Shown: in pieces, positions 1,490 to 37,781 of the stretch
Layout: the number at the start of each line of letters is the position of its first letter
Numbering within the stretch: position 1 is the stretch's first letter
Sequence record: SRR31156797_1918
Direction: 5' to 3' (one strand)
DNA: 42,270 nt
Program-made: the position numbers and the translations under genes
The notes under the pieces: generated by a model
Seen by the model: only the letters and a program-made list of their open reading frames with translations
The model's database searches: none
Told to the model about the DNA's origin: nothing

Positions 1490-4400
1490 ATGTCGAAATA
1501 CCATTTGGGACTGAACCTGGGGCACGACCGTGCTGCGGCTTTGGTCCGAGACGGAAAGATCGTCGTCGCCATCCACCAAGAGCGTCTGGATCGGCAGAAG
1601 CACAGCATTGGCTTTTTGCATCAAAACTTTCACGATCCTGCTCAAATTCAGCTGCCTCATGAAGCGATCCAGTACTGTCTGAAAAGTTGCGGCATTCAAC
1701 TCGCAGATGTCTCCACCATCAGCGCCAATATGCCCGGTGCTGACCAAAGCTCACAAATTCTTCACCGCAGTTTACCACCGGATTTCAAGGGAAGAATCTT
1801 AGCTCCCCCAAGCCATCACCGTATGCACGCCTATTCTGCCTACTGGCCGTCGGGCTTTGACGAAGCATTGGTCTTTGTCGTTGATGCCTCCGGCAGCAGC
1901 CATGATGGACTGACTGAATCGTACACCTTATACACTGCCTCCGGCGAAACAATTACTACCCTTTATGAGGAACGGGTACCTTCTCATCTGGCTCCCCTGT
2001 CCACTCTAGGTTTCCTCTACGAGTATGTCAGCAGCAAGGCTGGTTTTGTGACCCAAGTAGGTTCATCCATACGTGTTCCCGAGGCCGGTAAGCTGATGGG
2101 CCTTGCTGCCTACGGCAGTCTTCAAGACCAATGGCAAAGTTGGATCCGAACTTGTACCGATAGCTACCGCGTGGATATTTCGGCCTACGACATCTTTCTG
2201 GAGATTGCAGCCCTGGAGAAGCGTTATGACGACGGTCGGGGGAAACCCTACCTGCGACCATATCTCGTTGATTTAGCTTGCAAGGTACAGCACGAGCTTG
2301 AACAGGCCCTGCTGCACATCGTTGGCCGGGCTGTGAAGGAGACCGGATTACGTAAGGTCTGCCTCGCCGGTGGTGTCACCCTTAATTCGGTCGCCAATTA
2401 CAAGCTGTTGCACGAACTTAACCTGGAGGATATTTTCATTTTTCCAGCAGCAGGGGATGCCGGTATCGCTGCCGGTTGTGCTCTCTGGGCCTATGCAGAA
2501 CATGAGAGGGGCACGCTGCGTAAGCCCATGCGACATGCGGCTTTGGGGCACGCCTGGGACGACGAGTCCATCGTAGGTTCACTCGAACACTTCGCAGATC
2601 GCATTCAGGTTGAGCGTCTCACCGATGACCAGGTGGTAGAGCAGACCGCACAGGCACTAGCCAAGGGGCATATTGCCGCACGATTTGAGGGCGGCTCTGA
2701 ATTCGGGCCCCGCGCTCTTGGTTCCCGCTCAATCCTTGCCGACCCTACGTTCAAACACATCAAGGACATTCTCAACGCTCGGGTTAAATTTCGTGAGCCC
2801 TTCCGTCCGTTTGCCCCTGTTATTCCCGAAGAGGATATTACTGAAGTTTTCGAACAGGAGGTTCCATCACCTTTCATGCTGGTGGTGTCACAGATTAAGC
2901 CTGAATACCACGAACAGATACCAGCTGTAACCCATTACGACGGCTCGGGTCGAGTGCAGACTGTGACGGCGAGGGACAATCCTTTTTTTCATCGCCTCTG
3001 CCGAAAGATGGCCATTTTACGCGATGGGCCTCCGGTCATACTTAACACGAGTTTCAATATCGCTGGACAGCCAATTGTGGAAACCCCAGCGGAGGCCATC
3101 GAGACCTTCCTCAGCACCAACATCGACTATCTTTTCCTCGAGAATTATCGCATATCCAAGCGTGATGTTCCTGTGCTCGATTACGAACATCACTTGGCAG
3201 AGGTGGGCGATTGCACCCTGCCATATGGTTTGCCAAGCGGCCAAAAGCCGATTACAGAATTGATGTACCAACTGGATCGAGCTTTGTTCTTCAACGAAAC
3301 GGATAACTGCCCCTGGACGATGGAAGAGCTGCGGCTCCTGTCACAAGAAGGTGCTGTCTTCAAGGAGACAAGCAAAGAATTTCCGAACACCCCCTTTGAC
3401 AACCTCCTGCAAACTCAGCTATCACAATCTGTTGCGCTCTTACTAGATCCTATAAACGGATCACAGCTGGTCGATACAAGCGATAAGGCCAAAGCAGTAC
3501 GTCTTCCCTGGCCTGACGTGGGCTTGCTGAAAGCATTGCTCAATGGAGATCGTCTTCTGCTGGAACGTCTGCGTCTGGATCGCCAGTGCACGACCCTGTC
3601 ATGGGCCATGCAAATCGCTGCCATGACCGAGCGATTGCGTCTTTACCGATTAGAACTGGCAGACGTTGGTGCGAGCCAGGCCTATCTACCAGAAAAAGAC
3701 AGTGCCCTTCCGGAGCGTGTCAAGCTAACCCTCGAACCTTTCGAAGACGAAAACTTTCTACTTTGCTCCACCTTGGCCTTGCTGCGAAAGGTACTTGATG
3801 AGACAGAATACAACGAGACCACCATCTGCACGTTACTCGGAGTGGAATCCCTCCAGGCCATCGAGCCCACTCACTTACATTATTACGACCGTTTCCTGCT
3901 GCCAAATACACCACTCGCAAACCTCGTTCGCCTGTTCCTGCTGAGGGTTGCTCTGTCAGAGACAAAACTCCGCGACCTGTTCGGGGACAAAATGTTCGAG
4001 ACCCTTTCGAGTCTTGACGTGTTCTACCCTTCCAGTGAACTCTGGGCTTCTCGTATCGCTCTCTACAGTGTCGAAGGACTCTACCTGGCTACCGATCATC
4101 GCTATATGCTAGATGAAAAGATCCGATTACCGGAAGCTCCAGTAATGTACATCGGCCAGGATAGTCGAGGCCTAGTGCATGCGGCGCCGCGCAAGCCCTG
4201 CGCCAAACTACTTGATCTCTGTACCGGTTCAGGGATACAAGCTCTCTCTGGCAGCCGCTATGCCACTAACGCAGTTGGGGTGGACTTGAACCCGCGAGCC
4301 GTTCGTTTCGCTCGCTTCAACGCACAACTCAACGGTATTACCAATGTGCGCTTCCTGCAGGATGATCTTTATAATAGCTTCCAGGATGAAACGTTTGATA

Positions 4401-5323
4401 TCATCCTTGCCAATCCGCCCTTTGTACCCAGCCCCTACAGCAACTTGCGCTACCGCGATGGCGGTAACACTGGAGAAGCGATACTCGCGCGGGTCATTAG
4501 CGAAGCTAACCCGTATATGAGTCCCGGCGGTCAGCTGCACATCGTCACCGACCTTGTGAATATCGACGAGTATACGACCAAGCTGCAACACTGGTGGCAA
4601 GGTGAACCTACGCACCAACTGGTGCTTGGCACCGCTGACCGCGATGAAATTCTGTTTTCTGTGCCCCATAGTCACTCCCCTTTCGATCAGAGCGTTGAGG
4701 CTTACAAGACTGAGCTGGATAAATGGGTACACAATTACCGCGAAGCGGGAATCAAGGCCGTAAATTTTGGGTACATCTTCATCAATAAATTGACGAGTAA
4801 GGACGAGAGCACCTACTTCAACCGGGTGATCCATAACCCGTCAAGTCCCATCCATCACGAGGTGGCGAACTATTTTGTACAACGGCGGCTGCTTGCTGAG
4901 TTCAATACGGATAATCCCCCAAAGCTTTCCCTGCAGCTCAAGCCTGGTCTCAGGTTTCGGGTTGAGTTCGATGCAGCCGGCGGAGACCAGCAGGTAGAGC
5001 TATACGTTCCCAACAACCCCTATTTCACGACTTACGTGGTGAACAATGCGGTGTACCAGGAATTACAGTTCATCAATCGCCACCAGCCAAGCCTGGACGT
5101 GTTCCTGAACGAAACCCAGCAAACTCGGATCATAGACCTTGTCCTTAAAGGGGTATTGGAGCTGACGGAGCAAAGGGTGAATGCCTCGACAGAGGAAAGG
5201 GTTACGCTCACAGGCCACAGAGCCAACCCCGTTAACCAGCTCAATGGAGAAAGGGAGCCACTGGACATCAAAGAGCTGGAAACGAAAACTACGCCGACCT
5301 GCTTATCTTCATATTTATCTTAA
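1490..5323 (+). CDS. NodU/CmcH/TobZ-family O-carbamoyltransferase fused to a class I SAM-dependent (HemK/PrmC-like) methyltransferase
   Basis: Kae1-like motifs GHDRAAAL, SHHRMHAYSA, GKLMGLAAYG, AGGVTLN, GDAG; YrdC-like motifs EFGPRALGSRSILADP, KFREPFRPFAP, THYDGSGRVQTV, LNTSFN; then LLDLCTGSGIQAL, VDLNPRAV, ILANPPFVP. Confidence 0.92.
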   Translation: MSKYHLGLNLGHDRAAALVRDGKIVVAIHQERLDRQKHSIGFLHQNFHDPAQIQLPHEAIQYCLKSCGIQLADVSTISANMPGADQSSQILHRSLPPDFKGRILAPPSHHRMHAYSAYWPSGFDEALVFVVDASGSSHDGLTESYTLYTASGETITTLYEERVPSHLAPLSTLGFLYEYVSSKAGFVTQVGSSIRVPEAGKLMGLAAYGSLQDQWQSWIRTCTDSYRVDISAYDIFLEIAALEKRYDDGRGKPYLRPYLVDLACKVQHELEQALLHIVGRAVKETGLRKVCLAGGVTLNSVANYKLLHELNLEDIFIFPAAGDAGIAAGCALWAYAEHERGTLRKPMRHAALGHAWDDESIVGSLEHFADRIQVERLTDDQVVEQTAQALAKGHIAARFEGGSEFGPRALGSRSILADPTFKHIKDILNARVKFREPFRPFAPVIPEEDITEVFEQEVPSPFMLVVSQIKPEYHEQIPAVTHYDGSGRVQTVTARDNPFFHRLCRKMAILRDGPPVILNTSFNIAGQPIVETPAEAIETFLSTNIDYLFLENYRISKRDVPVLDYEHHLAEVGDCTLPYGLPSGQKPITELMYQLDRALFFNETDNCPWTMEELRLLSQEGAVFKETSKEFPNTPFDNLLQTQLSQSVALLLDPINGSQLVDTSDKAKAVRLPWPDVGLLKALLNGDRLLLERLRLDRQCTTLSWAMQIAAMTERLRLYRLELADVGASQAYLPEKDSALPERVKLTLEPFEDENFLLCSTLALLRKVLDETEYNETTICTLLGVESLQAIEPTHLHYYDRFLLPNTPLANLVRLFLLRVALSETKLRDLFGDKMFETLSSLDVFYPSSELWASRIALYSVEGLYLATDHRYMLDEKIRLPEAPVMYIGQDSRGLVHAAPRKPCAKLLDLCTGSGIQALSGSRYATNAVGVDLNPRAVRFARFNAQLNGITNVRFLQDDLYNSFQDETFDIILANPPFVPSPYSNLRYRDGGNTGEAILARVISEANPYMSPGGQLHIVTDLVNIDEYTTKLQHWWQGEPTHQLVLGTADRDEILFSVPHSHSPFDQSVEAYKTELDKWVHNYREAGIKAVNFGYIFINKLTSKDESTYFNRVIHNPSSPIHHEVANYFVQRRLLAEFNTDNPPKLSLQLKPGLRFRVEFDAAGGDQQVELYVPNNPYFTTYVVNNAVYQELQFINRHQPSLDVFLNETQQTRIIDLVLKGVLELTEQRVNASTEERVTLTGHRANPVNQLNGEREPLDIKELETKTTPTCLSSYLS

Positions 5324-5433
5324 TTCCGTCTTTTGGGGGCGACAAAAACAGGATAGATTGGGCTTTCGCTGGTTATGGAGCTATACTCTCGACAAATACA
5401 TCGTCGAGGTTTTAGACAACAACATCTATTGAG

Positions 5434-8022
5434 ATGTACACTATGAATTTACAGAAAACAGCAATAATTCTTATCGGCTATCAAAATGACTACTTTGCCG
5501 AGGATGGAATACTCCGAGCGGTGATTGAGGAACCAGGCCATGCCTCGGCCGTCCTGTCGAACACTATAGCACTGATCAAACGACTCCAGCTTACACCTGT
5601 GCACTTGATCTCAACGCCGATTATTTTCACACCAAAGTACACCGAGCTTGTCGACCCGGTAGGCATCCTTAAGACGATCCGTGATTGTGGAGCATTTAAA
5701 ACAGGGACCAAAGGGGCAAAAACCGTCCCTGAATTTTTAGAGTTCAAAGACCGGATTATGGAACTCCCTGGAAAATCGGGACTCAATGCCTTTTCAAACA
5801 CCCATCTAAACGATGTGCTGCAGGAAAGGGGGGTGACCGATGTCGTCTTGGCCGGAGTAGTTTCATCGATCTGCATCGATTCCACAGGACGATCGGCTTT
5901 TGAGCAAGGGTATAGGGTCCATATCCTCAGCGACTGCACAGCCGGTCGTACCGCAGTCGAGCAATCATTTTTTTGCGAAAAAATATTTCCACTTTACGCT
6001 AAGGTGATCGAGCCCCCGACTCTTTTTGCAGGTACCCAGGAGACATCAAGCTCAACCAATCATGAGCGTCACCTGGATCAATCTGAACTCGATCTCCAGG
6101 CGCGATACTGCCTCATTGAAGATCTCTCGCATTCAAAGCAACGTTATCAAGCCCTGATCGAACGTATGCACGACATTGTTTTCCAGGCTGATGACTCACT
6201 CCGCTTCACATTTCTTAACCCCGCCTGGACTTCTGTAACCGGCTTCTCAATAGCCGAAGCCATGGGCAGTTCTATGGCTGGGTTCGTTGCCGAGCCTAGC
6301 CAGGAAGCCTGGAAGAAATTTACAGGGGAACTGAAAAACGGTGCACAGCAGTATCTTCTTCCGGAACTGTGCCTGTGCCACGCTGACGACGGGTATCGTT
6401 GGGTGACGCTTTTCTTAGAAAAGGGCGATCCGGAAAGCTGGTGGACAGGCTCGATACACGACATCACTGATAGCAAGCGAGCGGAGGATGCACTCCGAGA
6501 AAGTGAGGAACGCTTTCGGACAATCTTCGAAACAGCCCAGGACTCCATCTTTATCAAAGATTGCGCCCTTAAGTACACCCACGTCAACCCGGCCATGGAG
6601 ACCAATTTTGGATTTTCGTCCTCTAAGCTGATCGGCCTGACAGATGATAATCTCTTCAATGAAAAAACAGGAGCACATCTCAGAGATATAGATTCTCGTG
6701 TTCTTAAGGGGGAAATCATTGAGGAGGAGCTCACTATATCATTGAATAAGGTCCTGCACAGGTTTGACATCATAAAGGTGCCGATGAAGGATAGCTCTGG
6801 TGAAATCAGTGGACTGTGTGGTATCGCTCGTAACATTTCCGAGCGGAAGAAGGCGGAAGAAGAGCTGCACAAAATGCAGAAACTAAAAAGTATTGGTACG
6901 CTGGCTGGCGGTATCGCGCATGATTTTAATAATATTCTGACCGGGCTGTTTTTCAATATCTCATTGGTAAAAAGCGAACTTTCCCAAGACCACCCTGGTT
7001 TCAGCGACCTTGAAAGCGCTGAAAAATCCATGAAAAGGGCATCTCGGCTTACCAGCCAGTTGTTGACTTTCGCAAAGGGTGGAGAACCCGTCATGGAAGA
7101 TGTCAGCCTTGGTAAACTTGTTGAAGAAGTAGTACGCTTTGACCTTTCAGGCAGCAACGTAATGCCCATTTTTAAGCAGGATGACGACCTTTGGATAGCC
7201 AAAGTGGATAACGGCCAGATACAGCAGGTCATCTCAAACCTTACCACAAATGCCAACCAGGCAATGCCCGCTGGCGGCCGCCTGTATATTGCATTGGAGA
7301 ATGCAAATATCCAAGAGAATGCGATATCAGGCCTAGATAAACGGAAATATATCAAGCTCACAGTGCGGGATGAAGGAACAGGTATCGAGCAGAAGAATCT
7401 TGACCGGATTTTCGACCCATATTTCAGCACCAAGCATACAGGCAGCGGCTTGGGCCTGGCTACAGTCTACTCAATCATAACTAAACACGGTGGCCATATA
7501 AGCGTTGATTCGGAATTAAATAAAGGAGCAACCTTTACGCTCTACCTACCCGTTTCAGCATCAAAGCATCCACCGGAAACTGAGCCTCTAGCCCTTGGGC
7601 TTTCGACAATAAAGCGAACTGCCAGAATTCTTGTAATGGATGATGACAAAATGATCAGAGTGGCAGCCTCGAAGATGCTCAAACTAATGGGACATTCGGT
7701 TGAAACAGCCATTGAAGGCAGACAGGCGATTGAAATGTATAAACAGTCATTTGATATCGGTGCGCCTTTTGATGCTGTCATTATGGACCTTACAATCCCA
7801 GGCGGTGTTGGTGGGAAGGAAGCGATCAGAAGCATCCTCGATATTGATCCGGAAGCCAGGGTCATTGTTTCCAGTGGATACGCCAATGATCCAGTCATGG
7901 CCAACTATACTGAATACGGCTTCAAAGATATCGTTGCAAAGCCATACAGCATGAGTCATTTTTGGGACGTGTTGAATCGAGTTTTGAAAACAAATGGGTA
8001 TTCAGACAATCGCCAGCAATAA
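5434..8022 (+). CDS. Hybrid sensor kinase: isochorismatase-like domain, PAS, PAS, HisKA, HATPase, REC (start may be ATG 5443)
   Basis: N-term IILIGYQNDYF, GKSGLNAF, LAGVVSSICIDSTGRSAFEQGY, LSDCTA; PAC ends HDITDSK and RNISERK; H-box AGGIAHDFNNIL; DEGTGI, FDPYFSTK, GSGLGL; receiver VMDDD, IMDLTIPG, KPY. No TM helix seen. Confidence 0.92.
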   Translation: MYTMNLQKTAIILIGYQNDYFAEDGILRAVIEEPGHASAVLSNTIALIKRLQLTPVHLISTPIIFTPKYTELVDPVGILKTIRDCGAFKTGTKGAKTVPEFLEFKDRIMELPGKSGLNAFSNTHLNDVLQERGVTDVVLAGVVSSICIDSTGRSAFEQGYRVHILSDCTAGRTAVEQSFFCEKIFPLYAKVIEPPTLFAGTQETSSSTNHERHLDQSELDLQARYCLIEDLSHSKQRYQALIERMHDIVFQADDSLRFTFLNPAWTSVTGFSIAEAMGSSMAGFVAEPSQEAWKKFTGELKNGAQQYLLPELCLCHADDGYRWVTLFLEKGDPESWWTGSIHDITDSKRAEDALRESEERFRTIFETAQDSIFIKDCALKYTHVNPAMETNFGFSSSKLIGLTDDNLFNEKTGAHLRDIDSRVLKGEIIEEELTISLNKVLHRFDIIKVPMKDSSGEISGLCGIARNISERKKAEEELHKMQKLKSIGTLAGGIAHDFNNILTGLFFNISLVKSELSQDHPGFSDLESAEKSMKRASRLTSQLLTFAKGGEPVMEDVSLGKLVEEVVRFDLSGSNVMPIFKQDDDLWIAKVDNGQIQQVISNLTTNANQAMPAGGRLYIALENANIQENAISGLDKRKYIKLTVRDEGTGIEQKNLDRIFDPYFSTKHTGSGLGLATVYSIITKHGGHISVDSELNKGATFTLYLPVSASKHPPETEPLALGLSTIKRTARILVMDDDKMIRVAASKMLKLMGHSVETAIEGRQAIEMYKQSFDIGAPFDAVIMDLTIPGGVGGKEAIRSILDIDPEARVIVSSGYANDPVMANYTEYGFKDIVAKPYSMSHFWDVLNRVLKTNGYSDNRQQ

Positions 8023-8370: not shown

Positions 8371-9033
8371 ATGGCACCAACCAGAGCGAGTACCCCCTTG
8401 TGGCTGATTCTGTTTATCACGCTGTTCGTCTGTCTGGCAGCATTCTTTTTATACCAGACGTTTGCTGCCCCTCCTGCCCCCAAGTCCGCACAAACACTCA
8501 AACCTGAGTGGTATACCCTTTCCACTGCCCGTGGTGAGATACGAAAAAATAACACCATTGTCGGCAACTGTTTTATCTGCCATGCCTTTTGGGTGCCGAT
8601 CCCCACCAGCAATCTAAACTCCGCACCCCGTTTTGCCCACTCTCATATCACACTTAACCACGGTACCAATGACCGCTGTTACAACTGCCATCACCTAACC
8701 GATCGCAACAAGTATACGGCAGATGATGGTTCCGGCATTATGCCGCAAATCTCAGAACAACTCTGTAAACGATGCCATGGGCTCATTTACAAAGATTGGG
8801 CCATGGGTACCCACGGGAAGTGGACAGGGAAGTGGGACTCTGCGCAATTCACAGACCAGGAGACATTCACCTGTGTTGAGTGCCATGATCCCCATGATCC
8901 TCAATTTAAGTACGCCATCATTGCTCCACCTCCTGTTTGGCAGGATAAATTCATTCGAAGTGAGAGCGAAGGAAGCCATTCAGGGCCACACTCAAGTTTT
9001 CTTATCGGTGAAGAACCAAAGGAGATCTTCTGA
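8371..9033 (+). CDS. Membrane-anchored tetraheme c-type cytochrome
   Basis: N-terminal hydrophobic helix; CFICH, CYNCH, CKRCH, CVECH; stop overlaps next start (TGATG). Confidence 0.88.
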   Translation: MAPTRASTPLWLILFITLFVCLAAFFLYQTFAAPPAPKSAQTLKPEWYTLSTARGEIRKNNTIVGNCFICHAFWVPIPTSNLNSAPRFAHSHITLNHGTNDRCYNCHHLTDRNKYTADDGSGIMPQISEQLCKRCHGLIYKDWAMGTHGKWTGKWDSAQFTDQETFTCVECHDPHDPQFKYAIIAPPPVWQDKFIRSESEGSHSGPHSSFLIGEEPKEIF

Positions 9034-9971
9034 TGGTTGAGAGTAAAGAGAAAAAAGGACAAGAAACCGGCACTGACAGGCGTAGTTTTATAAAAACAGG
9101 GACCGTTGCCGTTGCAGGACTTGCTGCCACAGGCGGGGCGCTCAGCCCGCTTTTTTATGCTGAAGAAGTACCAACTGTTGATGAACTGTTACAGAAACAT
9201 TACAAGAAACTTTCCACGGAAGACAAAAAGGATATATTTGAACGTCTGGAGTCCCAGCTTGAAAGGGAGCACGGAATCAAAGCCTCCATCTCCGATCCCC
9301 AACCCATGGACGGCGTAGAGTATGCCTATATCCTCAATGTCGGTCGTTGTATTGGCTGTAGAAAATGTGTCTATGCCTGTATGAAAGAGAACAACACCTC
9401 ACGAGCCCCTCAGCTCCAGTATATCAGGGTCATGAAGCTTAAACGCGGCTCCATTGACCTTGAAAACTCATCCCACGATTACCCAGAAGAAGAGGCCGCA
9501 TCGCCTGATTATTACTACATGCCCGCACAGTGCCATCAATGCCGTAACCCGCCCTGCATCAAAGTCTGCCCGGTCAAGGCCACCTGGATGGAAAAGGACG
9601 GTATAATCGTTGTTGATTACAACTGGTGCATCGGCTGTCGTTACTGTGAAGCAGCCTGTCCCTATCATGCTCGTCGTTTCAACTTTGCCAAGCCGGTTAT
9701 CCCCCGGGAAGAGATCAACCCCAATATGGGATATCTCTCTAACAGGATACGTCCGCTCGGGGTTATGGAGAAGTGTACTTTTTGTTTGCACCGGACACGT
9801 GTTGGGCTCTACCCTGCATGTCACGATGTTTGTCCCACCGGGGCAAGAAAATTTGGTGATCTTCGAGACCCAGAGTCCGAGGTACGCAAGATATTAGAAA
9901 AAGAAAGGGTTTATGTCCTGAAACAGGAAATAGGAACCATCCCCCGCTTCTATTATGTATTTGCAAAATAA
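9033..9971 (+). CDS. Tat-exported 4x[4Fe-4S] protein, NrfC/DsrO-like
   Basis: DRRSFIK twin-arginine motif; CIGCRKCVYAC, CHQCRNPPCIKVCP, CIGCRYCEAACP, CTFC...PACHDVCP. Confidence 0.9.
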   Translation: MVESKEKKGQETGTDRRSFIKTGTVAVAGLAATGGALSPLFYAEEVPTVDELLQKHYKKLSTEDKKDIFERLESQLEREHGIKASISDPQPMDGVEYAYILNVGRCIGCRKCVYACMKENNTSRAPQLQYIRVMKLKRGSIDLENSSHDYPEEEAASPDYYYMPAQCHQCRNPPCIKVCPVKATWMEKDGIIVVDYNWCIGCRYCEAACPYHARRFNFAKPVIPREEINPNMGYLSNRIRPLGVMEKCTFCLHRTRVGLYPACHDVCPTGARKFGDLRDPESEVRKILEKERVYVLKQEIGTIPRFYYVFAK

Positions 9972-10003
9972 AAGGGTACAAGGCCAACACTAACCACAGG
10001 GAA

Positions 10004-11194
10004 TTGCCCATGTTCAGATTCTTTGCAGACGGGTTCAAGGCCGCTTTTGTTGGAAGCGGTTGGTACTGGCTATGGATTTTACTACTCATTACCCTGTCCC
10101 TGATCGGGCTCAACGCCTATGCCAAGCAGCTCGCCTTTGGCCTGGTTACCTCAGGGATGGGAGATGAGGTCTCCTGGGGCCTCTACATAGCAAACTTTGC
10201 CTTTCTTGTAGGCATGGCAGCTGCTGCGGTGATGATGGTGATCCCCGCTTACATCTTTGATGATCGAGAGATGCACAAGGTGGTGATTTTCAGTGAACTT
10301 TTTGCCATTGCCGCCATGATCATGTGCATGCTCTTTATTGTCGTCGATCTGGGAAGACCGGATCGACTCTGGCACCTCATCCCTGGAATCGGTTTTTTCA
10401 ACTTTCCCGGGTCGCTGCTCACGTGGGATGTCATCGTCTTAAACGGCTACCTGCTCTTAAACCTCTGGGTCTGTTTTTATGTCCTCTATAAAGGCTATCA
10501 GGGAAAAACGCCCAAGCCCTATCTCTATATTCCAGTGGTCTTTCTGGCTATCGCCTGGGCACCATCAATCCATACCATCACTGCTTTTCTCTTCCAAGGG
10601 CTTGGAGGTCGACCTTTCTGGAACTCTGGGCTCATTGCCCCGCGTTTCCTGGTGTCTGCCTTTGCCGCTGGCCCCGCCTTTATGGTCCTGGTCTTTAAAT
10701 TTCTTAAAACCACCGGCGCCATCCACTTTAACGAAAAGGTTATCGATCGAATCAGGGTGATTATAACGGTCAGCCTGCTCATTAATCTTTTCCTGGCCGG
10801 CTCTGAACTCTTTGCTGAATTCTATTCCCAATCCGCCCATACCATTCATATCAGTCACCTTTTTGGGCTCCACGGCACATCTCTCCTAGCGCCCTGGATA
10901 TGGGGTGCTCTTGCTCTGAATGCTCTAGCAGCCCTAATCCTCCTCTCTCCCCTTCGCAGAAACTCTTTTTTTCTCATCTTATCCTGTATCATGATCGTCC
11001 TGGGCATCTGGACGGAAAAAGGCCTGGGGTTTGTTGTGCCCGGCTTTATTCCCACTCCGCTCGGGGATTTTGTCCAGTATGTCCCATCAACCAATGAACT
11101 GCTCATTTGCGCTGGTATCTGGGCCTTTGGCCTGCTTATCTATTCTGTGCTTCTCAAGGCTGCTATAACGATTGTTGATCGTACGCAGTACTGA
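10004..11194 (+). CDS. NrfD/PsrC-family integral membrane subunit (DsrP-like)
   Basis: SWGLYIANFAFLVGMAAAAV, VDLGRPDR; about 10 hydrophobic segments; follows an NrfC-like gene. Confidence 0.9.
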   Translation: MPMFRFFADGFKAAFVGSGWYWLWILLLITLSLIGLNAYAKQLAFGLVTSGMGDEVSWGLYIANFAFLVGMAAAAVMMVIPAYIFDDREMHKVVIFSELFAIAAMIMCMLFIVVDLGRPDRLWHLIPGIGFFNFPGSLLTWDVIVLNGYLLLNLWVCFYVLYKGYQGKTPKPYLYIPVVFLAIAWAPSIHTITAFLFQGLGGRPFWNSGLIAPRFLVSAFAAGPAFMVLVFKFLKTTGAIHFNEKVIDRIRVIITVSLLINLFLAGSELFAEFYSQSAHTIHISHLFGLHGTSLLAPWIWGALALNALAALILLSPLRRNSFFLILSCIMIVLGIWTEKGLGFVVPGFIPTPLGDFVQYVPSTNELLICAGIWAFGLLIYSVLLKAAITIVDRTQY

Positions 11195-11311
11195 GCCCAT
11201 AACGCAGGCTACTGAGGTAACTGTTATTCAAGCTCTTTTAAGGAGGTGCTCTTACCAAAAAGTTAAACAGGTAACATCACTCATCTCTCACCCTAAAAAA
11301 AGGAGTTAGTT

Positions 11312-13684
11312 ATGTTCAAGGTATGGAGAGGACTACTGCCAACTGCCATTGGCTTATGCCTGGTGGGTGCGGCATCAGCATATGGAGCCGGTGGCTGCTC
11401 GACTCAGGAATGTCACCAGGGCATCGCTGATATCAAACCAGCCGATCATGAAATGATGCGTACTATTAAAATGAACGGTTCCCAGCATGGAGACCCGGAT
11501 GGCTGCGTCATGTGTCACGGTGGAAATCCCAAAGCCACCAAAAAAGAAGAAGCGCATAAAGGCGTACCGCCAACACTGCGCATCGCGCCTGGTCCAAAAG
11601 ATTACTACCCAGATCCCGGATCCATATGGGTTGCCGAGAACTCCTGCGGCGCCTGTCATCCAGGCTATGTTTATCGCTCCAAACTTGGTCTGATGAATAC
11701 CGAAGCCGGTAAAATACAAGGTAACCTGGTCACCTGGGGCTTTGAAGAAGTCCAGGACTATAATGTTCCCTGGGGCAACTACAATGCCCAAGATATAGAC
11801 AGCCTTGACCCCTTGTCCGGCACTCCTGCCTACAAGGAGTATATGAAGAACCAGATAGCCCTCTATCCCAAGCAGTATCCAGAAAATCTCAAACAGATGC
11901 CCAACGTGACCATGGATGAGGTCAATGTTGATCCCAAGATGGCCGGGATCACCTACCAGCGACATGATTGTCAGCGTTGTCATATAGGCGTCAGAGGCCG
12001 TGAGAAGCGTGGTGATTTCAGAGGAATGGGCTGCTCGGCATGTCATGTTCTCTATGGGACTGACGGCTACTACATGGGCGAAGACAAAACTATCTCCAAG
12101 GACAAAGCTGGACACATGCTCAAGCACGAGATAGTGGCCACCAGAAAAACCGGTGGCATTCCGGTGGAAGCCTGTTCTTCTTGCCATAACCGCGGTAAGC
12201 GAATCGGCGTTTCCTTCCAAGGCTTGATGGAATTCCCCTATGGCTCGCCCTACAATGAAAAAGGAAATAAACAGCCTAAGCTGCACACCAAACGCTATCT
12301 CTTTGTCTCTGACGATCTCCACCACCAGCAGGCAAGCCGTAAAGGCAACCCTCAGGGTGGTATGCTCTGTCAAGACTGCCATACCTCCATTGATATGCAC
12401 GGTGATGGAAATATCCATGGGACGACTCTTGCCCAGGTGGAAATCGAATGTTCCGATTGTCATGGATTGACTGATAAATATCCTTGGGAACTCCCGGTGG
12501 GGTATGGGGATGAGTTTGGTAAGGATCTGAGCAAAGATCCTCGCGGTGTGGCTCAAGAGCGCTTAATCCCAGGGAGACAGTTCGGCTATCCTTACGAGGT
12601 CGAGGATGGCTTTATCCTTACTTCACGTGGAAACCCTTTTGGTAATGTTATCAAGCGTGGCAACAAGGTTATTGTCCATTCAGCCACTGGCAACGACTTT
12701 GAAGTACCTGTACTTAAAGTGCTGCGGGAAGAGAAAAGGTGGAAAGACCCATCTGCAGAAGTGGCCATGTATGCGGTTGCCAAGCATATGACCAACCTGG
12801 AATGCTATTCCTGTCATGCCTCTTGGGCACCGCAGTGTTACGGCTGTCATGTACAGGTCAACTACAAGCCCAAGGACGGTAAACCGGTCACCGGAACCGA
12901 CTGGGTGGCCTCTGGGAATGCCCAGAAACCCAATGGTCAAACCGCAGAATCAATCCTCGGCTCTGGTGGCATCAAGTCTCCCGGTAAAATATCTGAGACC
13001 AGGTCATACCTGCGTTGGGAAGATCCAGTCCTCGGTATCAGTGGCGAAGGGCGTGTGTCTCCACTCATGCCTGGTTGCCAGGTCACTTACACCATTATTA
13101 ATGACAAGGGTGAAACCCTGCTGAACAATGAAATTGCTCTCAGCCCCACAGAGGCTCAACAGCTTGGTCAGGAACATGTACCGCTTGCCATCGATATGGC
13201 TCCATTGCAACCCCACACGGCCCAGCGTCAAGCCAGGACCTGTGAGTCATGCCATACCAACCCCAAAGTAGCAGGACTTGGTTTGGGTAATGGTACGTTT
13301 GGACTCCGTCAGGCTGAAAACGTGGTAATGGATCTTATGGACGCCACCACCAGGGAGATTATCCCAGCCAAGTACAGCGTGCAGATCCCTGCCATCCCGA
13401 AACTGAATTTTGACTGGTCTCAGGTCGTCACCCGTGAGGGTGTCCAATTGGCCACGGTGGGTACACACTGGCCCATGTCCCGGGCATTCAACAAGCAGGA
13501 GATAGACAACTTCCTCAGGGCTGGCACCTGTATGGGCTGTCACCAGAACATGAGTGAAGCGGAACTGTGGAAAAAGGTTTCTACCGAAGGCACCATCGAT
13601 CCAAAAGGTCACTTGGAAGCGATGAACAAAATGATCAAGTTCATGGCAGAGCAGAATATGAAACCTGCTGAACTCCAAGAGTAA
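11312..13684 (+). CDS. Large exported multiheme c-type cytochrome (11 CxxCH plus one CX4CH)
   Basis: Signal peptide; CSTQECH, CVMCH, CGACH, CQRCH, CSACH, CSSCH, CQDCH, CSDCH, CYSCH, CYGCH, CESCH, CMGCH; RBS AAGGAG. Confidence 0.92.
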   Translation: MFKVWRGLLPTAIGLCLVGAASAYGAGGCSTQECHQGIADIKPADHEMMRTIKMNGSQHGDPDGCVMCHGGNPKATKKEEAHKGVPPTLRIAPGPKDYYPDPGSIWVAENSCGACHPGYVYRSKLGLMNTEAGKIQGNLVTWGFEEVQDYNVPWGNYNAQDIDSLDPLSGTPAYKEYMKNQIALYPKQYPENLKQMPNVTMDEVNVDPKMAGITYQRHDCQRCHIGVRGREKRGDFRGMGCSACHVLYGTDGYYMGEDKTISKDKAGHMLKHEIVATRKTGGIPVEACSSCHNRGKRIGVSFQGLMEFPYGSPYNEKGNKQPKLHTKRYLFVSDDLHHQQASRKGNPQGGMLCQDCHTSIDMHGDGNIHGTTLAQVEIECSDCHGLTDKYPWELPVGYGDEFGKDLSKDPRGVAQERLIPGRQFGYPYEVEDGFILTSRGNPFGNVIKRGNKVIVHSATGNDFEVPVLKVLREEKRWKDPSAEVAMYAVAKHMTNLECYSCHASWAPQCYGCHVQVNYKPKDGKPVTGTDWVASGNAQKPNGQTAESILGSGGIKSPGKISETRSYLRWEDPVLGISGEGRVSPLMPGCQVTYTIINDKGETLLNNEIALSPTEAQQLGQEHVPLAIDMAPLQPHTAQRQARTCESCHTNPKVAGLGLGNGTFGLRQAENVVMDLMDATTREIIPAKYSVQIPAIPKLNFDWSQVVTREGVQLATVGTHWPMSRAFNKQEIDNFLRAGTCMGCHQNMSEAELWKKVSTEGTIDPKGHLEAMNKMIKFMAEQNMKPAELQE

Positions 13685-17956: not shown

Positions 17957-20266
17957 GTGGAAAATATTTTGACCAATATTTCTTTGTTTAGAAGCCTGCG
18001 GTCACGGCTCACGTTGGCTTTTTTCGGCCTTGCTATCGGGCCAATTCTCGTTGTAGGTCTTGTTCTCTCTTTTAAAAGCATACATTCCCTGAAAAATGAG
18101 GCAATTGCCCACCAGCAAATTGAAGCTGAACGGGTAAGCATTGCTGTTGAGGATTATGTTCGTGAACTTGAGCGGGTCCTTGAATTGACTTCAAAGGCCC
18201 ATGGTTTCATGTCATTAATGCGACCGGAGCAGCAGAGTATTCTTGATGAGCTCATTGCCTATGAAAATCGTTTTGAAGCACTTACTTTGGTCGACAGTGA
18301 TGGCAATGAGTTGATCCGCAGCAACCGTATCCAGGTGGTATCCCAAGCGACTCTTGCCGATCGCGCCAATGATCCCGTCTTTCAACAAGTTGTTAAGTTC
18401 AACAGCAATTATTTCAGCCCGGTACAGTTCGACAATGTCACCGGCGAACCTCATATGACCATTGCCATACCTCTTCAATCTTTCCAAACCGGAGATATTA
18501 AATATGTTCTGTTTGGAACTATTCGCTTAAAGAAAATATGGGATCTCCTTGCCAGTATAACACACCCCGATCAATCAATTTTTATCGTCGATGGCCAGGG
18601 AAATATTATTGGACACCCTGACCCCTCCGTAACGCTTAGCGGGCAGAAATTTCAGCTTCCAACCACTTCCTCTGGAATTGCTACCGGGTTGAACGGAGGC
18701 GAAGTTGTCATAGCGACCAAACGATTGGTATTTGGAGAACAATCGATTCACATCATTGCTCAGACTGAGATTGTCAAGGCACTACACCTTTCTCAAGAGA
18801 TTATCTTTATCAGTTTACTGGTCGTGGTTATCGCATTGATTCTGGCTACCTCCTTATCTTCTCTTGTTATTGGTGCAATTATTCATCCCCTGGAACATCT
18901 TGCTTCTGTTGCACGTATCATTCAACAGGGTGATCTTGATCAACAGGTTGAGTACAGTCGTAACGATGAGGTCGGTGAACTCGGACGTGCCTTCAATGAT
19001 ATGACCATGAGATTACGTTCAACTATTGAAAATCTTGAAAATGAAATTGCAGAACGAAATAATGAAATTGCAGAGCGGAAAAAGACTGAAAAGGAAAAGA
19101 AAGAGCTGACAAAACAGTTGCAGCAAGCCCAAAAAATGGAAGCCATCGGAACACTGGCTGGCGGGATTGCCCATGATTTTAACAACATCCTTGCTGCCAT
19201 TCTCGGCTATTCGGAAATGATCCGTATGGGCAGTCAAGCCGACTCAAAAACCACCGGGTATATCGATCAAGTCATCAAAGCCGGCAACAGAGCAAAAGAA
19301 CTTGTTAAACAGATACTGGCTTTTAGCCGACAGGCCGCGACTGAAAGAATTCTCATACAGCCGGCAGCAATCATAAAAGATGCCATTAAGCTGTTACGTC
19401 CTTCTCTGCCGACAACCATTAAGATTAAACAGGATATAGCTCCAGATGTGGGTTTCATTTTGGCAGACCCAAACCAGATTCATCAGGTGCTCATGAATCT
19501 TTGTACCAATGCCTTCCACACCATGGAAATTCCTGGTGGGACCCTCACCATTTCACTGCACACCAAGGTGATCACCTCTGAAGAACTTGGCGACAAGCAA
19601 AACCTACAACCAGGCACTTTTATGCAACTGTCGGTTTGGGATAGCGGTGCAGGGATTCCCCCAGATATCAGAAAGAGAATATTTGATCCTTACTTCACTA
19701 CCAAGGAAGTAGGCAAAGGTACGGGTATGGGCCTTGCTATGGTCCATGGAATAGTCCAAAGCCACGGAGGATTTATTACCTGTGAAAGCCAACTTAACGT
19801 TGGAACAGTTTTTCACGTTTTTCTTCCAATTGCAGAGGCCGTGGCTTTCTCAGAGAGCGAAACCCCGGAGCTTATTCCGACTGGTAAGGAGCACATTCTC
19901 TTAATAGATGACGAGGACATGCTTCTTGAGATGGGTAAGACGATGTTGGAACGTCTGGGCTACACGGTTACAGCTTATTCAAATGGCATCGCTGCACTCA
20001 CCACAATCCAAAATCAGCCGGATAAGTATGACCTTATAATTACAGATCAGACTATGCCGAGTATAACCGGAATTGACATTAGCCACCGCATTTTACAAAT
20101 ATGTCCAGATATGCCGATAATTCTCTGTACCGGATATAGCACCAATTTTTCTGAAGAAAAAATAAAATCCATGGGGATCGGAGGATTTGCAATGAAACCT
20201 ATCACCCTAAAGGAAATCGCCGTACTAATCAGGAATGTGTTGGAGAAAAATGACTTAGGGGAATGA
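17957..20266 (+). CDS. Membrane hybrid sensor kinase: TM, Cache-like, TM, HAMP, HisKA, HATPase, REC
   Basis: Two TM helices; HAMP DEVGELGRAFNDM; AGGIAHDFNNIL; NLCTNA, DSGAGI, GTGMGL; receiver LIDDED, ITDQTMP, KP. Confidence 0.93.
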   Translation: MENILTNISLFRSLRSRLTLAFFGLAIGPILVVGLVLSFKSIHSLKNEAIAHQQIEAERVSIAVEDYVRELERVLELTSKAHGFMSLMRPEQQSILDELIAYENRFEALTLVDSDGNELIRSNRIQVVSQATLADRANDPVFQQVVKFNSNYFSPVQFDNVTGEPHMTIAIPLQSFQTGDIKYVLFGTIRLKKIWDLLASITHPDQSIFIVDGQGNIIGHPDPSVTLSGQKFQLPTTSSGIATGLNGGEVVIATKRLVFGEQSIHIIAQTEIVKALHLSQEIIFISLLVVVIALILATSLSSLVIGAIIHPLEHLASVARIIQQGDLDQQVEYSRNDEVGELGRAFNDMTMRLRSTIENLENEIAERNNEIAERKKTEKEKKELTKQLQQAQKMEAIGTLAGGIAHDFNNILAAILGYSEMIRMGSQADSKTTGYIDQVIKAGNRAKELVKQILAFSRQAATERILIQPAAIIKDAIKLLRPSLPTTIKIKQDIAPDVGFILADPNQIHQVLMNLCTNAFHTMEIPGGTLTISLHTKVITSEELGDKQNLQPGTFMQLSVWDSGAGIPPDIRKRIFDPYFTTKEVGKGTGMGLAMVHGIVQSHGGFITCESQLNVGTVFHVFLPIAEAVAFSESETPELIPTGKEHILLIDDEDMLLEMGKTMLERLGYTVTAYSNGIAALTTIQNQPDKYDLIITDQTMPSITGIDISHRILQICPDMPIILCTGYSTNFSEEKIKSMGIGGFAMKPITLKEIAVLIRNVLEKNDLGE

Positions 20267-32935: not shown

Positions 32936-34321
32936 TCAAGAGACTTTAAGTATCTTGCGACGATAGCGAAGGGTGGAGTACTTTAGGTGAAGAAGCTTGG
33001 CCGCCTGAGTTTCATTGGCTTTTGTGATCCTCAAGGCCTCTTTGATATACTGTTTTTCAATGGATTCCAATAAAGAGGGTAAATTAATTCCGGCTGAAGA
33101 AAGAGCAGGGGTGAGTCTTTCCAGAAGATCCTCTTCTCCATGAGTAGGGAGAAGAGCCTGTTTTCCGAGATCCTCCAGGGTAAGTTTCGGCCCTTTTGCA
33201 ATGAGGGTTGCTCTTTCAATTAAATTTTTCAATTCACGAACATTTCCGCGCCACTGAATCTGTTGTAGCGCATGTTCAGCTTGAGAAGTGATGCCGTTCA
33301 ATGACTTGCCAAAGTTCTTACTGAATTCCAGCAGAAAATGTTTGGCTATGGGCAAAATATCTTCAGGGCGTTTATTCAATGAAGGAACTTCGATCTTAAT
33401 GACCCCAATTCTGAAATAAAGATCTTCACGAAAAGATCCTTCATTTATCATTTGGGTAATATTCTTGTTGGTTGCCGAAACGACCCTTGTCTGGACATGT
33501 ACTGCCTTGGTTCCACCAACTTTATAGAATTTCCCTGATTCAAGAAATCGTAAAAGCTTGGCCTGCGCATCAAGATCCAAATCACCAATTTCATCGAGAA
33601 AAAGAGTACCACCTGCTGCTTGTTCGATGAGGCCTTTCTTTCCAAAGGGTTTAGCTCCACTGAAAGCCCCTTGTTCGTAGCCAAACAGCTCGCTCTCAAC
33701 AAGATCTTTAGGAATGGCAGCACAGTTAACCGGAATCAACTCTCCCCGGAAATTGGGGCTTCTGAAATGAATGGCGCCGGCAACAAGTTCTTTGCCAGTG
33801 CCTGATTCACCGAGAATAAGAATCGGGGTATCAGGGCTCTTGGCTACGTCTTCAACAAACTGCATAACCTCCTGGATAAGCTTACTTTCCCCAATAAAAA
33901 AAGGCAGATTTTCCCTAAGATATTTTTCCTGCAGGGCCTTGACCTCTTTTCTCAACCTGATCTGTTCTAAGGCATTCTTGATGGTAACCTTAAGTGAATC
34001 CATCTGAATGGGTTTTACGACGTAATCGTAAGCGCCAAGGCGCATTGCGGAAATAACGGTTTTGATATCCTCAAAGGCCGTTATCATAATTACAACCGTC
34101 TCAGGATACTCCTTTTTTATGGCTCCCAAGGCTTCAATCCCACTCATTCCTGGCAGCCCAATATCAAGTAGGACAAGATCCGGAGGATCCTTTTTGATAG
34201 ATTCGAGAGCTTCTTCAGCTGTGGTAAAAAAACTTGCACGGTAATCTTCCTGTAAAATGTGGGCAATGGCTTTAGCTAAAGACTGCTCATCATCAACTAT
34301 GTAAATGGAATAGGTTATCAT
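32936..34321 (-). CDS. NtrC-family sigma54-dependent response regulator (REC, AAA+, HTH)
   Basis: IVDDE, LLDIGLP; GESGTGKE, ESELFGYEQGAFSGA, LFLDEIG, FREDLYFR, WRGNVREL; ATG 34321 overlaps the kinase stop (ATGA), so preferred over 34378. Confidence 0.93.
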   Translation of the reverse strand: MITYSIYIVDDEQSLAKAIAHILQEDYRASFFTTAEEALESIKKDPPDLVLLDIGLPGMSGIEALGAIKKEYPETVVIMITAFEDIKTVISAMRLGAYDYVVKPIQMDSLKVTIKNALEQIRLRKEVKALQEKYLRENLPFFIGESKLIQEVMQFVEDVAKSPDTPILILGESGTGKELVAGAIHFRSPNFRGELIPVNCAAIPKDLVESELFGYEQGAFSGAKPFGKKGLIEQAAGGTLFLDEIGDLDLDAQAKLLRFLESGKFYKVGGTKAVHVQTRVVSATNKNITQMINEGSFREDLYFRIGVIKIEVPSLNKRPEDILPIAKHFLLEFSKNFGKSLNGITSQAEHALQQIQWRGNVRELKNLIERATLIAKGPKLTLEDLGKQALLPTHGEEDLLERLTPALSSAGINLPSLLESIEKQYIKEALRITKANETQAAKLLHLKYSTLRYRRKILKVS

Positions 34322-37139: not shown

Positions 37140-37580
37140 ATGTCAGAAAAAACTACCTTAGAGGGAAGTATTATTTCCATGCTGACTAATGAAAAAATGA
37201 TACTCATAGATAATGATGAAGGAGTCAGGAAGTCCTTATCATTATTTTTCAAATCCCGTACATACAATCTACTTACCATTGAAAATAGTACACAGGCGTT
37301 AAAGGCAATAAAAATGAATATATATTCTATAATAATATGTGAAGAGTTTCTACCTGATATAAACGGTATAACTTTATTCAAAATACTAAAACATAAAGGA
37401 TACAGAAGCATAAATATTCTTACAAGTTCTTATGGAATAATCCCTAACCAGGAAGATATTAAAGGAACAGGTATTGACTATATACTCACAAAACCATTTT
37501 CAGGAAATAAAGTGGAAGCAGTTATATCAAAATTGATAAAATTAAGGGATATAAGGCAGAACTGGCTAGGTATATGCTGA
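37140..37580 (+). CDS. Single-domain response regulator receiver, atypical (phosphoacceptor Asp appears as Glu)
   Basis: MILIDNDE, IIICEEFLPDING, LTKPF; very AT-rich; true start uncertain. Confidence 0.75.
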   Translation: MSEKTTLEGSIISMLTNEKMILIDNDEGVRKSLSLFFKSRTYNLLTIENSTQALKAIKMNIYSIIICEEFLPDINGITLFKILKHKGYRSINILTSSYGIIPNQEDIKGTGIDYILTKPFSGNKVEAVISKLIKLRDIRQNWLGIC

Positions 37581-37781
37581 AGTCATCATTCATTAGAATG
37601 ACTGCAATTATCTTTGAGAGGTTACAAACCACACGATTGATTCAGATAATTATTTTTTATTTAAACCATAACGAGTTTGATATCTATACATACAATACCA
37701 ACATATCATTTGTTCAATATATGTAAACACGACATTTCCTAAGAAACCTAACTAATAAATAACAAACGAAATTACCTTACA

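Follow-up and report, generated by a model that had tools for sequence, protein, structure and literature searches.

A glycine-type isochorismatase-like domain fused to a PAS-histidine kinase as a candidate sensory input

The window, a stretch of 42,270 nucleotides from sequence record SRR31156797_1918, carries two neighboring genes on the plus strand. The first (1490..5323) encodes a protein of 1277 aa in which a carbamoyltransferase of the NodU/CmcH type, an NPPF methyltransferase and two further, unassigned regions were recognized with Pfam, NCBIfam and alignment A3. Its Pfam matches (Carbam_trans_N, 123 bits; Carbam_trans_C, 209 bits) place it among the NodU/CmcH carbamoyltransferases, and it falls short of the NCBIfam NodU equivalog (133 bits, cut-off 1000). 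Its C-terminal tail, TKTTPTCLSSYLS (5282..5320), is invariant in 9/9 proteins of alignment A3, and a TxTTPTC tail was found in all 53 metagenome carbamoyltransferase-methyltransferase proteins with a complete C-terminus. A 110-nt spacer (5324..5433) separates the stop codon of this gene from the ATG of the second; a weak promoter-like match lies at 5413-5442, and no terminator-like site was found in the spacer. The second gene (5434..8022) encodes a putatively soluble hybrid histidine kinase of 862 aa. The open reading frames and Pfam domains bear out the original prediction that it lies 110 nt downstream of the carbamoyltransferase gene in the same orientation, and that an isochorismatase-like domain is fused in it to a PAS-PAS-kinase-receiver chain.

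In this protein, translated from an open frame, the domain order is isochorismatase fold, PAS, PAS, HisKA, HATPase_c and REC. The isochorismatase-fold (cysteine-hydrolase-like) domain spans aa 9-192 (5458..6009) and is followed by a polar linker (aa 193-217; 6010..6084), the sole stretch left uncovered in the domain map, which is read as a gene-fusion scar from the junction comparison described below and from its pLDDT of <50. A conserved helix (aa 218-245, ELDLQARYCLIEDLSHSKQRYQALIERM; 6085..6168), modeled as helical over residues 216-245, leads into a partner-specific first PAS domain (~aa 237-350; 6142..6483; Pfam PAS/PAS_4 match at aa 237-295). The second PAS domain (aa 359-478; 6508..6867) is matched by Pfam PAS_4/PAS_9 (aa 365-472) and by the NCBIfam sensory_box model. 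All landmarks of a hybrid histidine kinase were located by Pfam and motif position: HisKA (aa 488-550; 6895..7083) with the phospho-acceptor His496 (6919-6921), HATPase_c (aa 592-707; 7207..7554) with its N box (Asn606), G1 (Asp646) and G2 (Gly670), and a Response_reg receiver (aa 732-843; 7627..7962) with Asp736, Lys836 and the acceptor Asp785 (7786-7788).

Membership of the N-terminal domain in the isochorismatase superfamily is indicated by a Pfam score of 109 bits (PF00857, cut-off 27) over aa 9-192. An AlphaFold model of aa 1-206 (pLDDT 94, pTM 0.90) has the three-layer alpha/beta fold of the family, with Foldseek probabilities of 1.00 for 3kl2, BiuH, RutB and PncA; 3kl2 ranks first (TM 0.9), followed by BiuH, TrtA, RutB and N-carbamoylsarcosine amidase. 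More specific classifications are lacking: the best NCBIfam match is the BiuH model NF050097 (54.4 bits, equivalog cut-off 370), no NCBIfam model has a cut-off that the domain passes, PADLOC gives no match for it, and a search of the protein atlas returns generic isochorismatase clusters only. The original prediction placed a glycine at the first triad position, with lysine and cysteine retained, and translation, motif positions and alignments agree. Gly15 (codon GGC, 5476..5478), in IILIGYQND, takes the place of the catalytic Asp, the general base/acid of cysteine amidohydrolases at the end of strand 1. In the clade profile it stands opposite the Asp of the biuret hydrolase 6xjm (TALILIDWQIDF) and of 3lqy (TALLLIDFQNDYF), and by alignment it stands opposite a Glu in 3kl2, the nearest solved relative. 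The other two triad residues are in place, Lys114 in GKSG (5773..5775) and the nucleophile Cys147 in SICIDSTGR (5872..5874), each invariant in 44/44 aligned kinase-linked proteins. A second cysteine, Cys168 in SDCT (5935..5937), is invariant in alignments A1 and A4.

The glycine is not peculiar to the window. It is present in all close relatives examined and in 13/13 long relatives, and among 105 domain sequences spanning all three triad columns, the query included, the Asp column holds Gly in 63, Glu in 32, Asp in nine and Lys in one. The commonest triad combinations in these sequences are G-K-C (40) and G-R-C (12). Across phyla, the kinase-linked Gly-type proteins have a mean column identity of 58%. 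Judged from these alignments, Gly in the Asp column is a fixed hallmark of the whole clade and occurs well beyond chance. The description of the domain as catalytically degenerate is therefore right as to the replacement of Asp by Gly, and does not stand if local decay is meant, since the exchange is clade-wide and the kinase-linked proteins show no variation in Lys and Cys.

Genome context points to the role of the clade. A scan of 185,579 species genomes gave 493 Gly-type locus matches (~0.3%), obtained with alignment A2, which is smaller than the broad and more diverse A1, and with two patterns, of which one demanded the Gly and one demanded K or R in the Lys114 column. The pair of a putative sensor gene and a kinase gene was found in Cyanobacteriota, Pseudomonadota, Planctomycetota, Myxococcota, Bacteroidota, Actinomycetota and other phyla. 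Context was counted in the best 80 of the 493 matches. These are the query's closest relatives, and the counts do not extend to more distant Gly-type proteins (38-50% identity). In 79 of the best 80 loci the hydrolase-like domain is a free protein of ~200 aa, and it is fused only in L001. A co-oriented signaling gene lies directly downstream in 76 of the 77 loci of this set with room for one (L031 and L052, without downstream room, are left out of the denominator), usually a PAS-histidine kinase gene and sometimes one for a PAS-GGDEF-EAL protein or a Ser/Thr kinase. Among the 79 free loci of the same best 80, a co-oriented PAS/kinase match starts between -60 and +400 nt from the stop codon in 71, to which five with a kinase, Ser/Thr kinase or PAS-GGDEF-EAL gene downstream were added (L014, L036, L057, L075, L078), and the downstream match spans the PAS1 region in 67. 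In L041, a convergent REC-cyclase gene takes the place of the co-oriented partner. Stop codon of the sensor gene and start codon of the partner gene often overlap. In unbiased, HMM-based samples of 201 and 401 genomes, a kinase gene lies within 1.5 kb of 11/11 Gly-type genes and of 0/37 other isochorismatase paralogs, and pairing with a signaling gene was thus seen only in the Gly-type clade.

The partner proteins share their N-terminus. Of those sampled, 24/25 start with a PAS domain while their outputs vary, and a common N-terminal helix motif recurs at aa 218-245 of the window protein (alignment A5). When the fusion junction is compared with the free genes of L002-L004, L006 and L011, the linker corresponds to the end of a free sensor gene plus the leader of a PAS-kinase, the partner's leader being read through in the window protein. 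Fusion has happened repeatedly among relatives, with outputs that include PAS-HK-REC (in two architectures), GGDEF-EAL-REC (P0039) and TIR, and in the tree the six rows of the window protein's fused clade branch from within the free forms. A model of aa 1-360 as a single chain, built with 15 fused homologues, has a pTM of 0.54, a linker pLDDT of <50 and no confident packing of the domains. We define the pair here by a Gly in the Asp column together with an N-terminal helix-PAS signaling protein directly adjacent or fused, and the window gene has both features in fused form. Because its two parts are free neighbors elsewhere, and because of the contrast in kinase adjacency between Gly-type genes and other paralogs, the window gene is identified as a conserved pair of sensor and kinase genes that has fused into one, the members remaining separate neighbors in nearly all other carriers. 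A conserved pair that is specific to one clade supports the original prediction that the hydrolase-like domain serves as the input of the kinase.

Altogether, the Gly-type hydrolase-like protein appears to mark a widespread sensor partner of signaling proteins. The reading that we prefer, with a probability of about 0.6, is that the Gly-type domain is a sensory input feeding the partner or fused kinase through the helix and PAS domain. Its conserved pocket would accommodate a small compound of the amide or ureido type, which, because the general-base Asp is missing, would be held with no turnover or with turnover slower than normal. The compound may stay bound to Cys147 as a long-lived adduct. 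The occupied state would then be relayed, presumably by physical contact between sensor and partner, along the helix (aa 218-245) and PAS1 as far as the kinase core, where autophosphorylation at His496 would be followed by transfer to the receiver Asp785 and on to an Hpt protein or response regulator. As to the missing base, a study of BiuH describes Asp36 of that enzyme as both general base and acid, with none of four substitutions tolerated, Glu included (PMC5806882).

This irreplaceable Asp also weighs on a rival reading, which we regard as unlikely, that the Gly-type protein is still hydrolytic, with another residue or the substrate itself acting as base, and that the PAS-kinase reads its state or product. 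Invariant Lys and Cys in the kinase-linked proteins, the conservation of many pocket columns and the identity level across the whole protein all fit an enzyme with another base. Lys-to-Arg exchanges occur in 12/63 Gly rows, and the equivalent form of BiuH kept ~1/25 of its activity according to the same study (PMC5806882). However, Lys and/or Cys is lost in 11/63 Gly rows, among them P0039, which has lost both and is still fused to GGDEF-EAL-REC; catalysis is therefore arguably not needed for signaling.

A different reading starts from the upstream gene: the Gly-type domain would have evolved as a dedicated receptor for the carbamoylated product of the carbamoyltransferase-methyltransferase and would report it to the kinase. 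The linkage on which the proposed synthase/receptor circuit rests does recur. In 16/80 loci (the best 80 of 493), enzyme and sensor genes are no more than 10 kb apart, in the order enzyme-sensor-kinase in nine, sensor-kinase-enzyme in six and divergently in one, and in the sensor tree these loci fall into at least four branches, each with its own support. In the reverse direction, a sensor gene was found near 18/80 enzyme loci, and in 10/24 of those with a complete gene and ≥3 kb of flank on both sides. The only recurrent neighbors of the enzyme gene are the sensor and kinase families, and the nearest characterized folds of the domain are the carbamoyl/ureido amidohydrolases BiuH, TrtA and RutB. 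However, the linkage is optional in both directions. In 64 of the best 80 of the 493 sensor loci, the surrounding 10 kb contain no enzyme gene, a full-length enzyme homologue was found in 0/5 large genomes bearing the pair, the marine branch of the enzyme family has no sensor gene even with 6-kb flanks, and some enzyme loci (L081, L088, L089) have a PAS-kinase gene and no sensor gene. Comparison of linked and unlinked loci found no sensor residue that separates them, the best candidate being an Ile/Val change. The enzyme is a real but optional third member of the cluster. Because the linkage is optional and no residue tracks it, a receptor for the synthase product is not the best-supported reading; the circuit of the original prediction is possible and is not favored, and we consider a dedicated receptor unlikely. 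It is more likely that the enzyme is co-regulated with the sensor or acts in the same pathway than that it is the sole source of its ligand.

Less probable still is a thiol switch, in which Cys147 and/or Cys168 would make the domain responsive to oxidants or electrophiles, with no specific metabolite recognized. Two invariant cysteines, and a cysteine activated by a neighboring Lys with no Asp beside it, are consistent with such chemistry; against it, conservation extends beyond the cysteines to the whole pocket, and some Gly-type members have no Cys. It is also conceivable, as a long shot, that a carbamoyl group is relayed on protein. The upstream enzyme would build the group on its own invariant tail (TKTTPTCLSSY), where the NPPF methyltransferase would perhaps N-methylate it, and it would then be passed to Cys147. 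With the hydrolysing Asp missing, the group would persist as a stable thiocarbamate, a covalent mark read by the kinase, and in genomes without the enzyme the Gly-type domain would instead catch free carbamoylating or amide compounds. A lack of functional coupling, with the domain reduced to a scaffold or remnant in a neighborhood inherited by synteny, is hardly credible: nothing favors it specifically, the correlation of partner distances (r 0.77) being expected of any co-inherited pair, and it is contradicted by the retention of the pair across many phyla from Cyanobacteriota to Actinomycetota, the constancy of the N-terminal PAS domain while outputs change, the frequent overlap of start and stop codons, and the independent fusions. 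A role in a defense system was also considered, from the TIR fusions and from a CHAT-TPR neighbor in Nostoc, and was set aside since nothing else supported it.

To our knowledge, the signal perceived by cytoplasmic histidine kinases is mostly not known. In the full-text literature searched, which does not cover subscription journals, we found no description of an isochorismatase-type domain as an input to histidine kinases, PAS proteins or two-component systems, nor of pseudoenzyme forms of isochorismatase. The putative sensor module described here can be recognized from sequence alone, as an isochorismatase fold with Gly for Asp that adjoins or is fused to a helix-PAS signaling protein, and its outputs across many phyla are kinases, cyclic-di-GMP enzymes, a Ser/Thr kinase and TIR domains. 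It would provide a clean natural case in which fixing the loss of a single catalytic residue has made a signaling part out of an enzyme fold. Since the reactive Cys is kept and the catalytic Asp lost, sensing by covalent capture is directly testable. The pair may also give a first functional clue to the carbamoyltransferase-methyltransferase, an unusual enzyme whose tail is invariant and bears a Cys.

Several known systems resemble parts of this one. The nearest solved relative, 3kl2, is a putative isochorismatase of Streptomyces avermitilis from structural genomics (1e-32 by sequence; TM 0.9 and 33% identity by fold) and shares with the window protein an insert region (…YxEL…P.GILK…AF..GT.GA), the Lys and the Cys. 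It differs in having Glu where the window protein has Gly, and the Glu-type genes among the control loci (L163 and L200-L205, 7/37) have no kinase gene beside them. BiuH, TrtA, RutB and N-carbamoylsarcosine amidase are metabolic enzymes acting on carbamoyl or ureido amides; they share the fold (TM 0.7-0.84) and the Lys and Cys columns, whereas the general-base Asp of their Asp-Lys-Cys triad is Gly in the window protein. We know of no pairing of BiuH-type cysteine amidohydrolases with kinases. The upstream enzyme recalls HypF-HypE, in which a carbamoyl group is transferred to a C-terminal cysteine; common features are a carbamoyltransferase that includes YrdC-like and Kae1-like parts and, near a protein C-terminus, a conserved Cys. 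Unlike HypF-HypE, it carries the tail on the enzyme itself, combines the NodU/CmcH family with an NPPF methyltransferase and has no hydrogenase context. Trigger enzymes and pseudoenzyme sensors are likewise enzyme folds put to use in the control of signaling; the Gly-type case differs in that the loss of one catalytic residue is fixed throughout a clade, which is tied to signaling genes. H-NOX proteins, stand-alone cytoplasmic sensors encoded beside their partner histidine kinases, offer a parallel in gene organization, with a small soluble sensor gene adjoining a kinase or cyclic-di-GMP enzyme gene and fused to it in some lineages. H-NOX is a haem protein, whereas the Gly-type domain has a hydrolase fold with a reactive Cys and a partner that always begins with the N-terminal helix and PAS domain.

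The hybrid kinase gene (5434-8022, + strand) encodes 862 aa, in which Pfam's Isochorismatase profile covers aa 9-192 with 109 bits (cut-off 27) and PAS, PAS, HisKA, HATPase_c and receiver domains come next, bearing out the originally predicted fusion of an isochorismatase-like domain to PAS-PAS-HK-REC. The kinase and receiver motifs are whole (His496, Asn606, Asp646, Gly670, Asp785). AlphaFold models aa 1-206 with high confidence (pLDDT 94), and the fold closest to this model is the uncharacterised structure 3kl2 (TM 0.9), followed by the biuret hydrolase BiuH, TrtA, RutB, N-carbamoylsarcosine amidase and nicotinamidases. The predicted Asp-to-Gly change was likewise confirmed: Gly15 (codon GGC, 5476-5478, + strand) aligns to the catalytic Asp, lying opposite Glu in 3kl2 and opposite Asp in both 3lqy and the biuret hydrolase structure 6xjm, and Lys114 (GKSG) and Cys147 (SICI) are kept. 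BiuH has Asp in this column, whereas the window domain has Gly15. Throughout the BiuH cycle this Asp acts as general base and acid; none of four substitutions of it was tolerated, and activity fell to ~1/25 in a Lys-to-Arg variant (PMC5806882).

HMMER, run exhaustively over 1.84 billion representatives, returned 2879 matches at E ≤ 0.001. The best 150 of these were realigned with the proteins found earlier, and 105 domain rows (query included) span all triad columns. At the Asp column, 63 rows have Gly, 32 Glu, 9 Asp and 1 Lys; the Gly rows divide into G-K-C (40), G-R-C (12) and rows in which Lys and/or Cys is gone (11). Ordered by closeness to the query, the relatives are Gly-type only, then Glu-type, with canonical Asp-type most distant, and all 13 long relatives from a set of 5.8 billion proteins carry Gly. 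The Gly is the mark of a clade, not a sign of local decay.

Genomic context was explored by scanning a single genome for each of 185,579 species, which returned 493 relatives; the best 80 were taken with 10-kb flanks, and all 80 have Gly, partly by construction because one of the two search patterns demanded it. Among these 80 loci, the window-type fusion occurs only in Desulfogranum mediterraneum (L001, 81% identical). The other 79 have free ORFs of 194-337 aa, the greater lengths being due to upstream start calls. Downstream of 71 free ORFs, a gene in the same orientation matches the PAS-kinase portion of the window protein and starts -60 to +400 nt from the stop, frequently overlapping it by 4 nt; the match includes the first PAS at 67 of the 71. 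The remaining downstream neighbours are histidine kinases (L014, L036, L057), a Ser/Thr protein kinase (L075), a PAS-GGDEF-EAL protein (L078) and a convergent REC-cyclase (L041). Leaving out L031 and L052, where a contig end ≤170 nt away leaves no room, a co-oriented signalling gene directly follows at 76 of 77 loci. Pfam analysis of 25 partners placed a PAS domain first, at about aa 25-140, in 24, with outputs varying between HisKA-HATPase with 0-3 receivers and Hpt, HisKA_2, or GGDEF-EAL. Common to the partners is a conserved N-terminal helix (consensus ELxxQIQYRLIExLSxSExRYRxLVE), also present in the window protein at aa 218-245. In three Nostocales genomes (L042, 5602-9168; L061; L074), a TPR-CHAT protein of 1188 aa is encoded on the same strand ~0.8 kb upstream of the pair.

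Two HMM-based genome samples, spread evenly over their phyla, are free of the Gly-pattern bias. Gly-type genes were found in 2 of 201 cyanobacterial genomes, both followed by a PAS-kinase gene, and no kinase or PAS match lay within 1.5 kb of other isochorismatase paralogs in these genomes (0/28 loci). In Pseudomonadota, 9 of 401 genomes have a Gly-type gene, each with an adjoining kinase gene, downstream in seven; at the other two (L196, L198), the end of a (PAS-)kinase gene meets the start of the Gly-type gene. None of nine loci with Glu-type or other relatives in the same 401 genomes has an adjoining kinase gene. Pooled, a kinase adjoins 11/11 Gly-type genes versus 0/37 other loci, and in these samples the pairing is specific to the Gly clade.

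Fusion has also recurred. A maximum-likelihood tree (quick search) of 106 domain sequences groups the window protein with five other fused proteins (SH-aLRT 86), nested within free forms of tubeworm symbionts and Alphaproteobacteria. The free relatives have …LLARGGVIDG* as their end, and the partner gene opens 29 nt before it, in a different frame, with …AESSMADVHDRRPDPSELELQVRY…; comparison of the junctions indicates that the window linker TQETSSSTNHERHLDQSELDLQARY is read-through of the partner-gene leader, and the window gene is a recent fusion. A second fused architecture of ~730 aa (domain-PAS-HK-REC) branches near the clade base, a Gly-type domain without Lys and Cys is joined to GGDEF-EAL-REC (P0039), and others are joined to TIR domains (P0012, P0003). 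Long JGI- and Logan-derived proteins (P0012, P0003, P0002) show Gly-type tandem pairs and TIR fusions, and form one well-supported group nested within bacterial free forms. Glu-type relatives are fused too, to a FIST sensor domain (P0142) and to alpha-acetolactate decarboxylase (P0091).

The operon pair is conserved, fusion is repeated, outputs change and the helix-PAS stays constant, a combination that is the textbook mark of a sensory input module. The best-supported reading makes the Gly-type protein the sensor of a cytoplasmic signalling unit with two parts, of which the window gene is the fused form. The earlier interpretation is partly supported, namely for a hydrolase-like domain as kinase input. 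The sensor may bind an amide or ureido compound, which, for want of the general base, it would not turn over and could trap on Cys147.

The kinase gene does begin 110 nt behind a NodU/CmcH-type carbamoyltransferase gene (1490-5323, + strand), as predicted, with no terminator-like site seen in the gap. Besides a methyltransferase domain, this enzyme has two regions (about aa 600-880 and 1040-1264) that are unassigned and without a family match. The methyltransferase part (aa 873-1030) is most like HemK/PrmC-type methyltransferases in NCBIfam, matches the PADLOC model mad2 (80.7 bits) and has an NPPF motif (ILANPPFVPSP; 4412-4423, aa 975-978). After a variable linker, the protein ends in an invariant tail, TxTTPTC[LIV][ST][SA]Y plus 1-3 residues (5282-5320, + strand, aa 1265-1277), present in 9/9 aligned genome proteins and 53/53 metagenome proteins with a complete C-terminus; it resembles a substrate or carrier arm that is part of the enzyme itself and bears a reactive Cys. 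Behind the kinase gene, after a 350-nt gap, a cluster (8371-13684) encodes a multihaem cytochrome c (220 aa), a 4Fe-4S protein (312 aa), an NrfD-type membrane protein (396 aa) and a multihaem cytochrome (790 aa); no such cluster was seen tied to the kinase at other loci. Further signalling genes (17957-20266, 32936-36438, 37140-39779) encode a dCache-HAMP hybrid kinase, a PAS kinase with sigma-54 activator, a single receiver and a chemoreceptor, none an obvious partner of the kinase.

The enzyme had been proposed to make the compound sensed by the kinase, with co-occurrence across genomes as a check. Searching the best 80 of 493 sensor loci (tblastn, 1277-aa query, 10-kb flanks) found full-length homologues at 16, with 51-83% identity in the catalytic half, ordered enzyme-sensor-signalling gene (9), sensor-kinase-enzyme (6) or divergently (1). 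On the sensor tree, linkage requires 9 changes, at least 4 of them forced by well-supported branches. At two loci (L011, 15111-18947; L030, 5871-9968), the enzyme match is broken across several frames or pieces, which could reflect frameshifts, decay or assembly errors. Conversely, a metagenome scan with the enzyme alignment gave 126 relatives; a Gly-type gene lies ≤6 kb away in 18 of the best 80, and in 10/24 loci where the gene is complete and each flank is ≥3 kb, counts that are not fully independent because some contigs duplicate one another (L096 and L097 are near-identical) or genome loci (L116 has the size and layout of L073). Neighbour clustering found kinase/PAS proteins (21 loci) and the Gly-type protein (17 loci) as the sole recurrent enzyme neighbours. 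Two tandem Gly-type genes stand directly upstream of the enzyme in L157 (609-2008; 54/49% identical to the window domain) and L159 (4414-5831; 53/47%). At L081 (3385-9849), L088 (5983-11527) and L089 (4769-10716), the enzyme lies beside a PAS-histidine kinase, without an isochorismatase-like gene; L081 additionally has a stand-alone receiver protein. The link is real but optional, and a product-receptor circuit is possible for the enzyme-bearing subset. Such a circuit cannot be what the module does in general: five large or complete genomes bearing the pair have no full-length enzyme homologue anywhere, the marine enzyme branch, which keeps the tail, has no sensor among the metagenome loci, and no sensor residue was found to track linkage.

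That the Gly-type protein is instead a working enzyme coupled to the kinase is a less likely rival, kept because Lys and Cys are invariant within the kinase-linked set. The literature searched, most subscription journals being outside its scope, describes neither a tie of this fold to signalling proteins nor its pseudoenzyme forms. On the sensor reading, the module belongs with the accessory or fused sensors of two-component and related signalling proteins, here built on a hydrolase fold whose catalytic site carries a fixed change.
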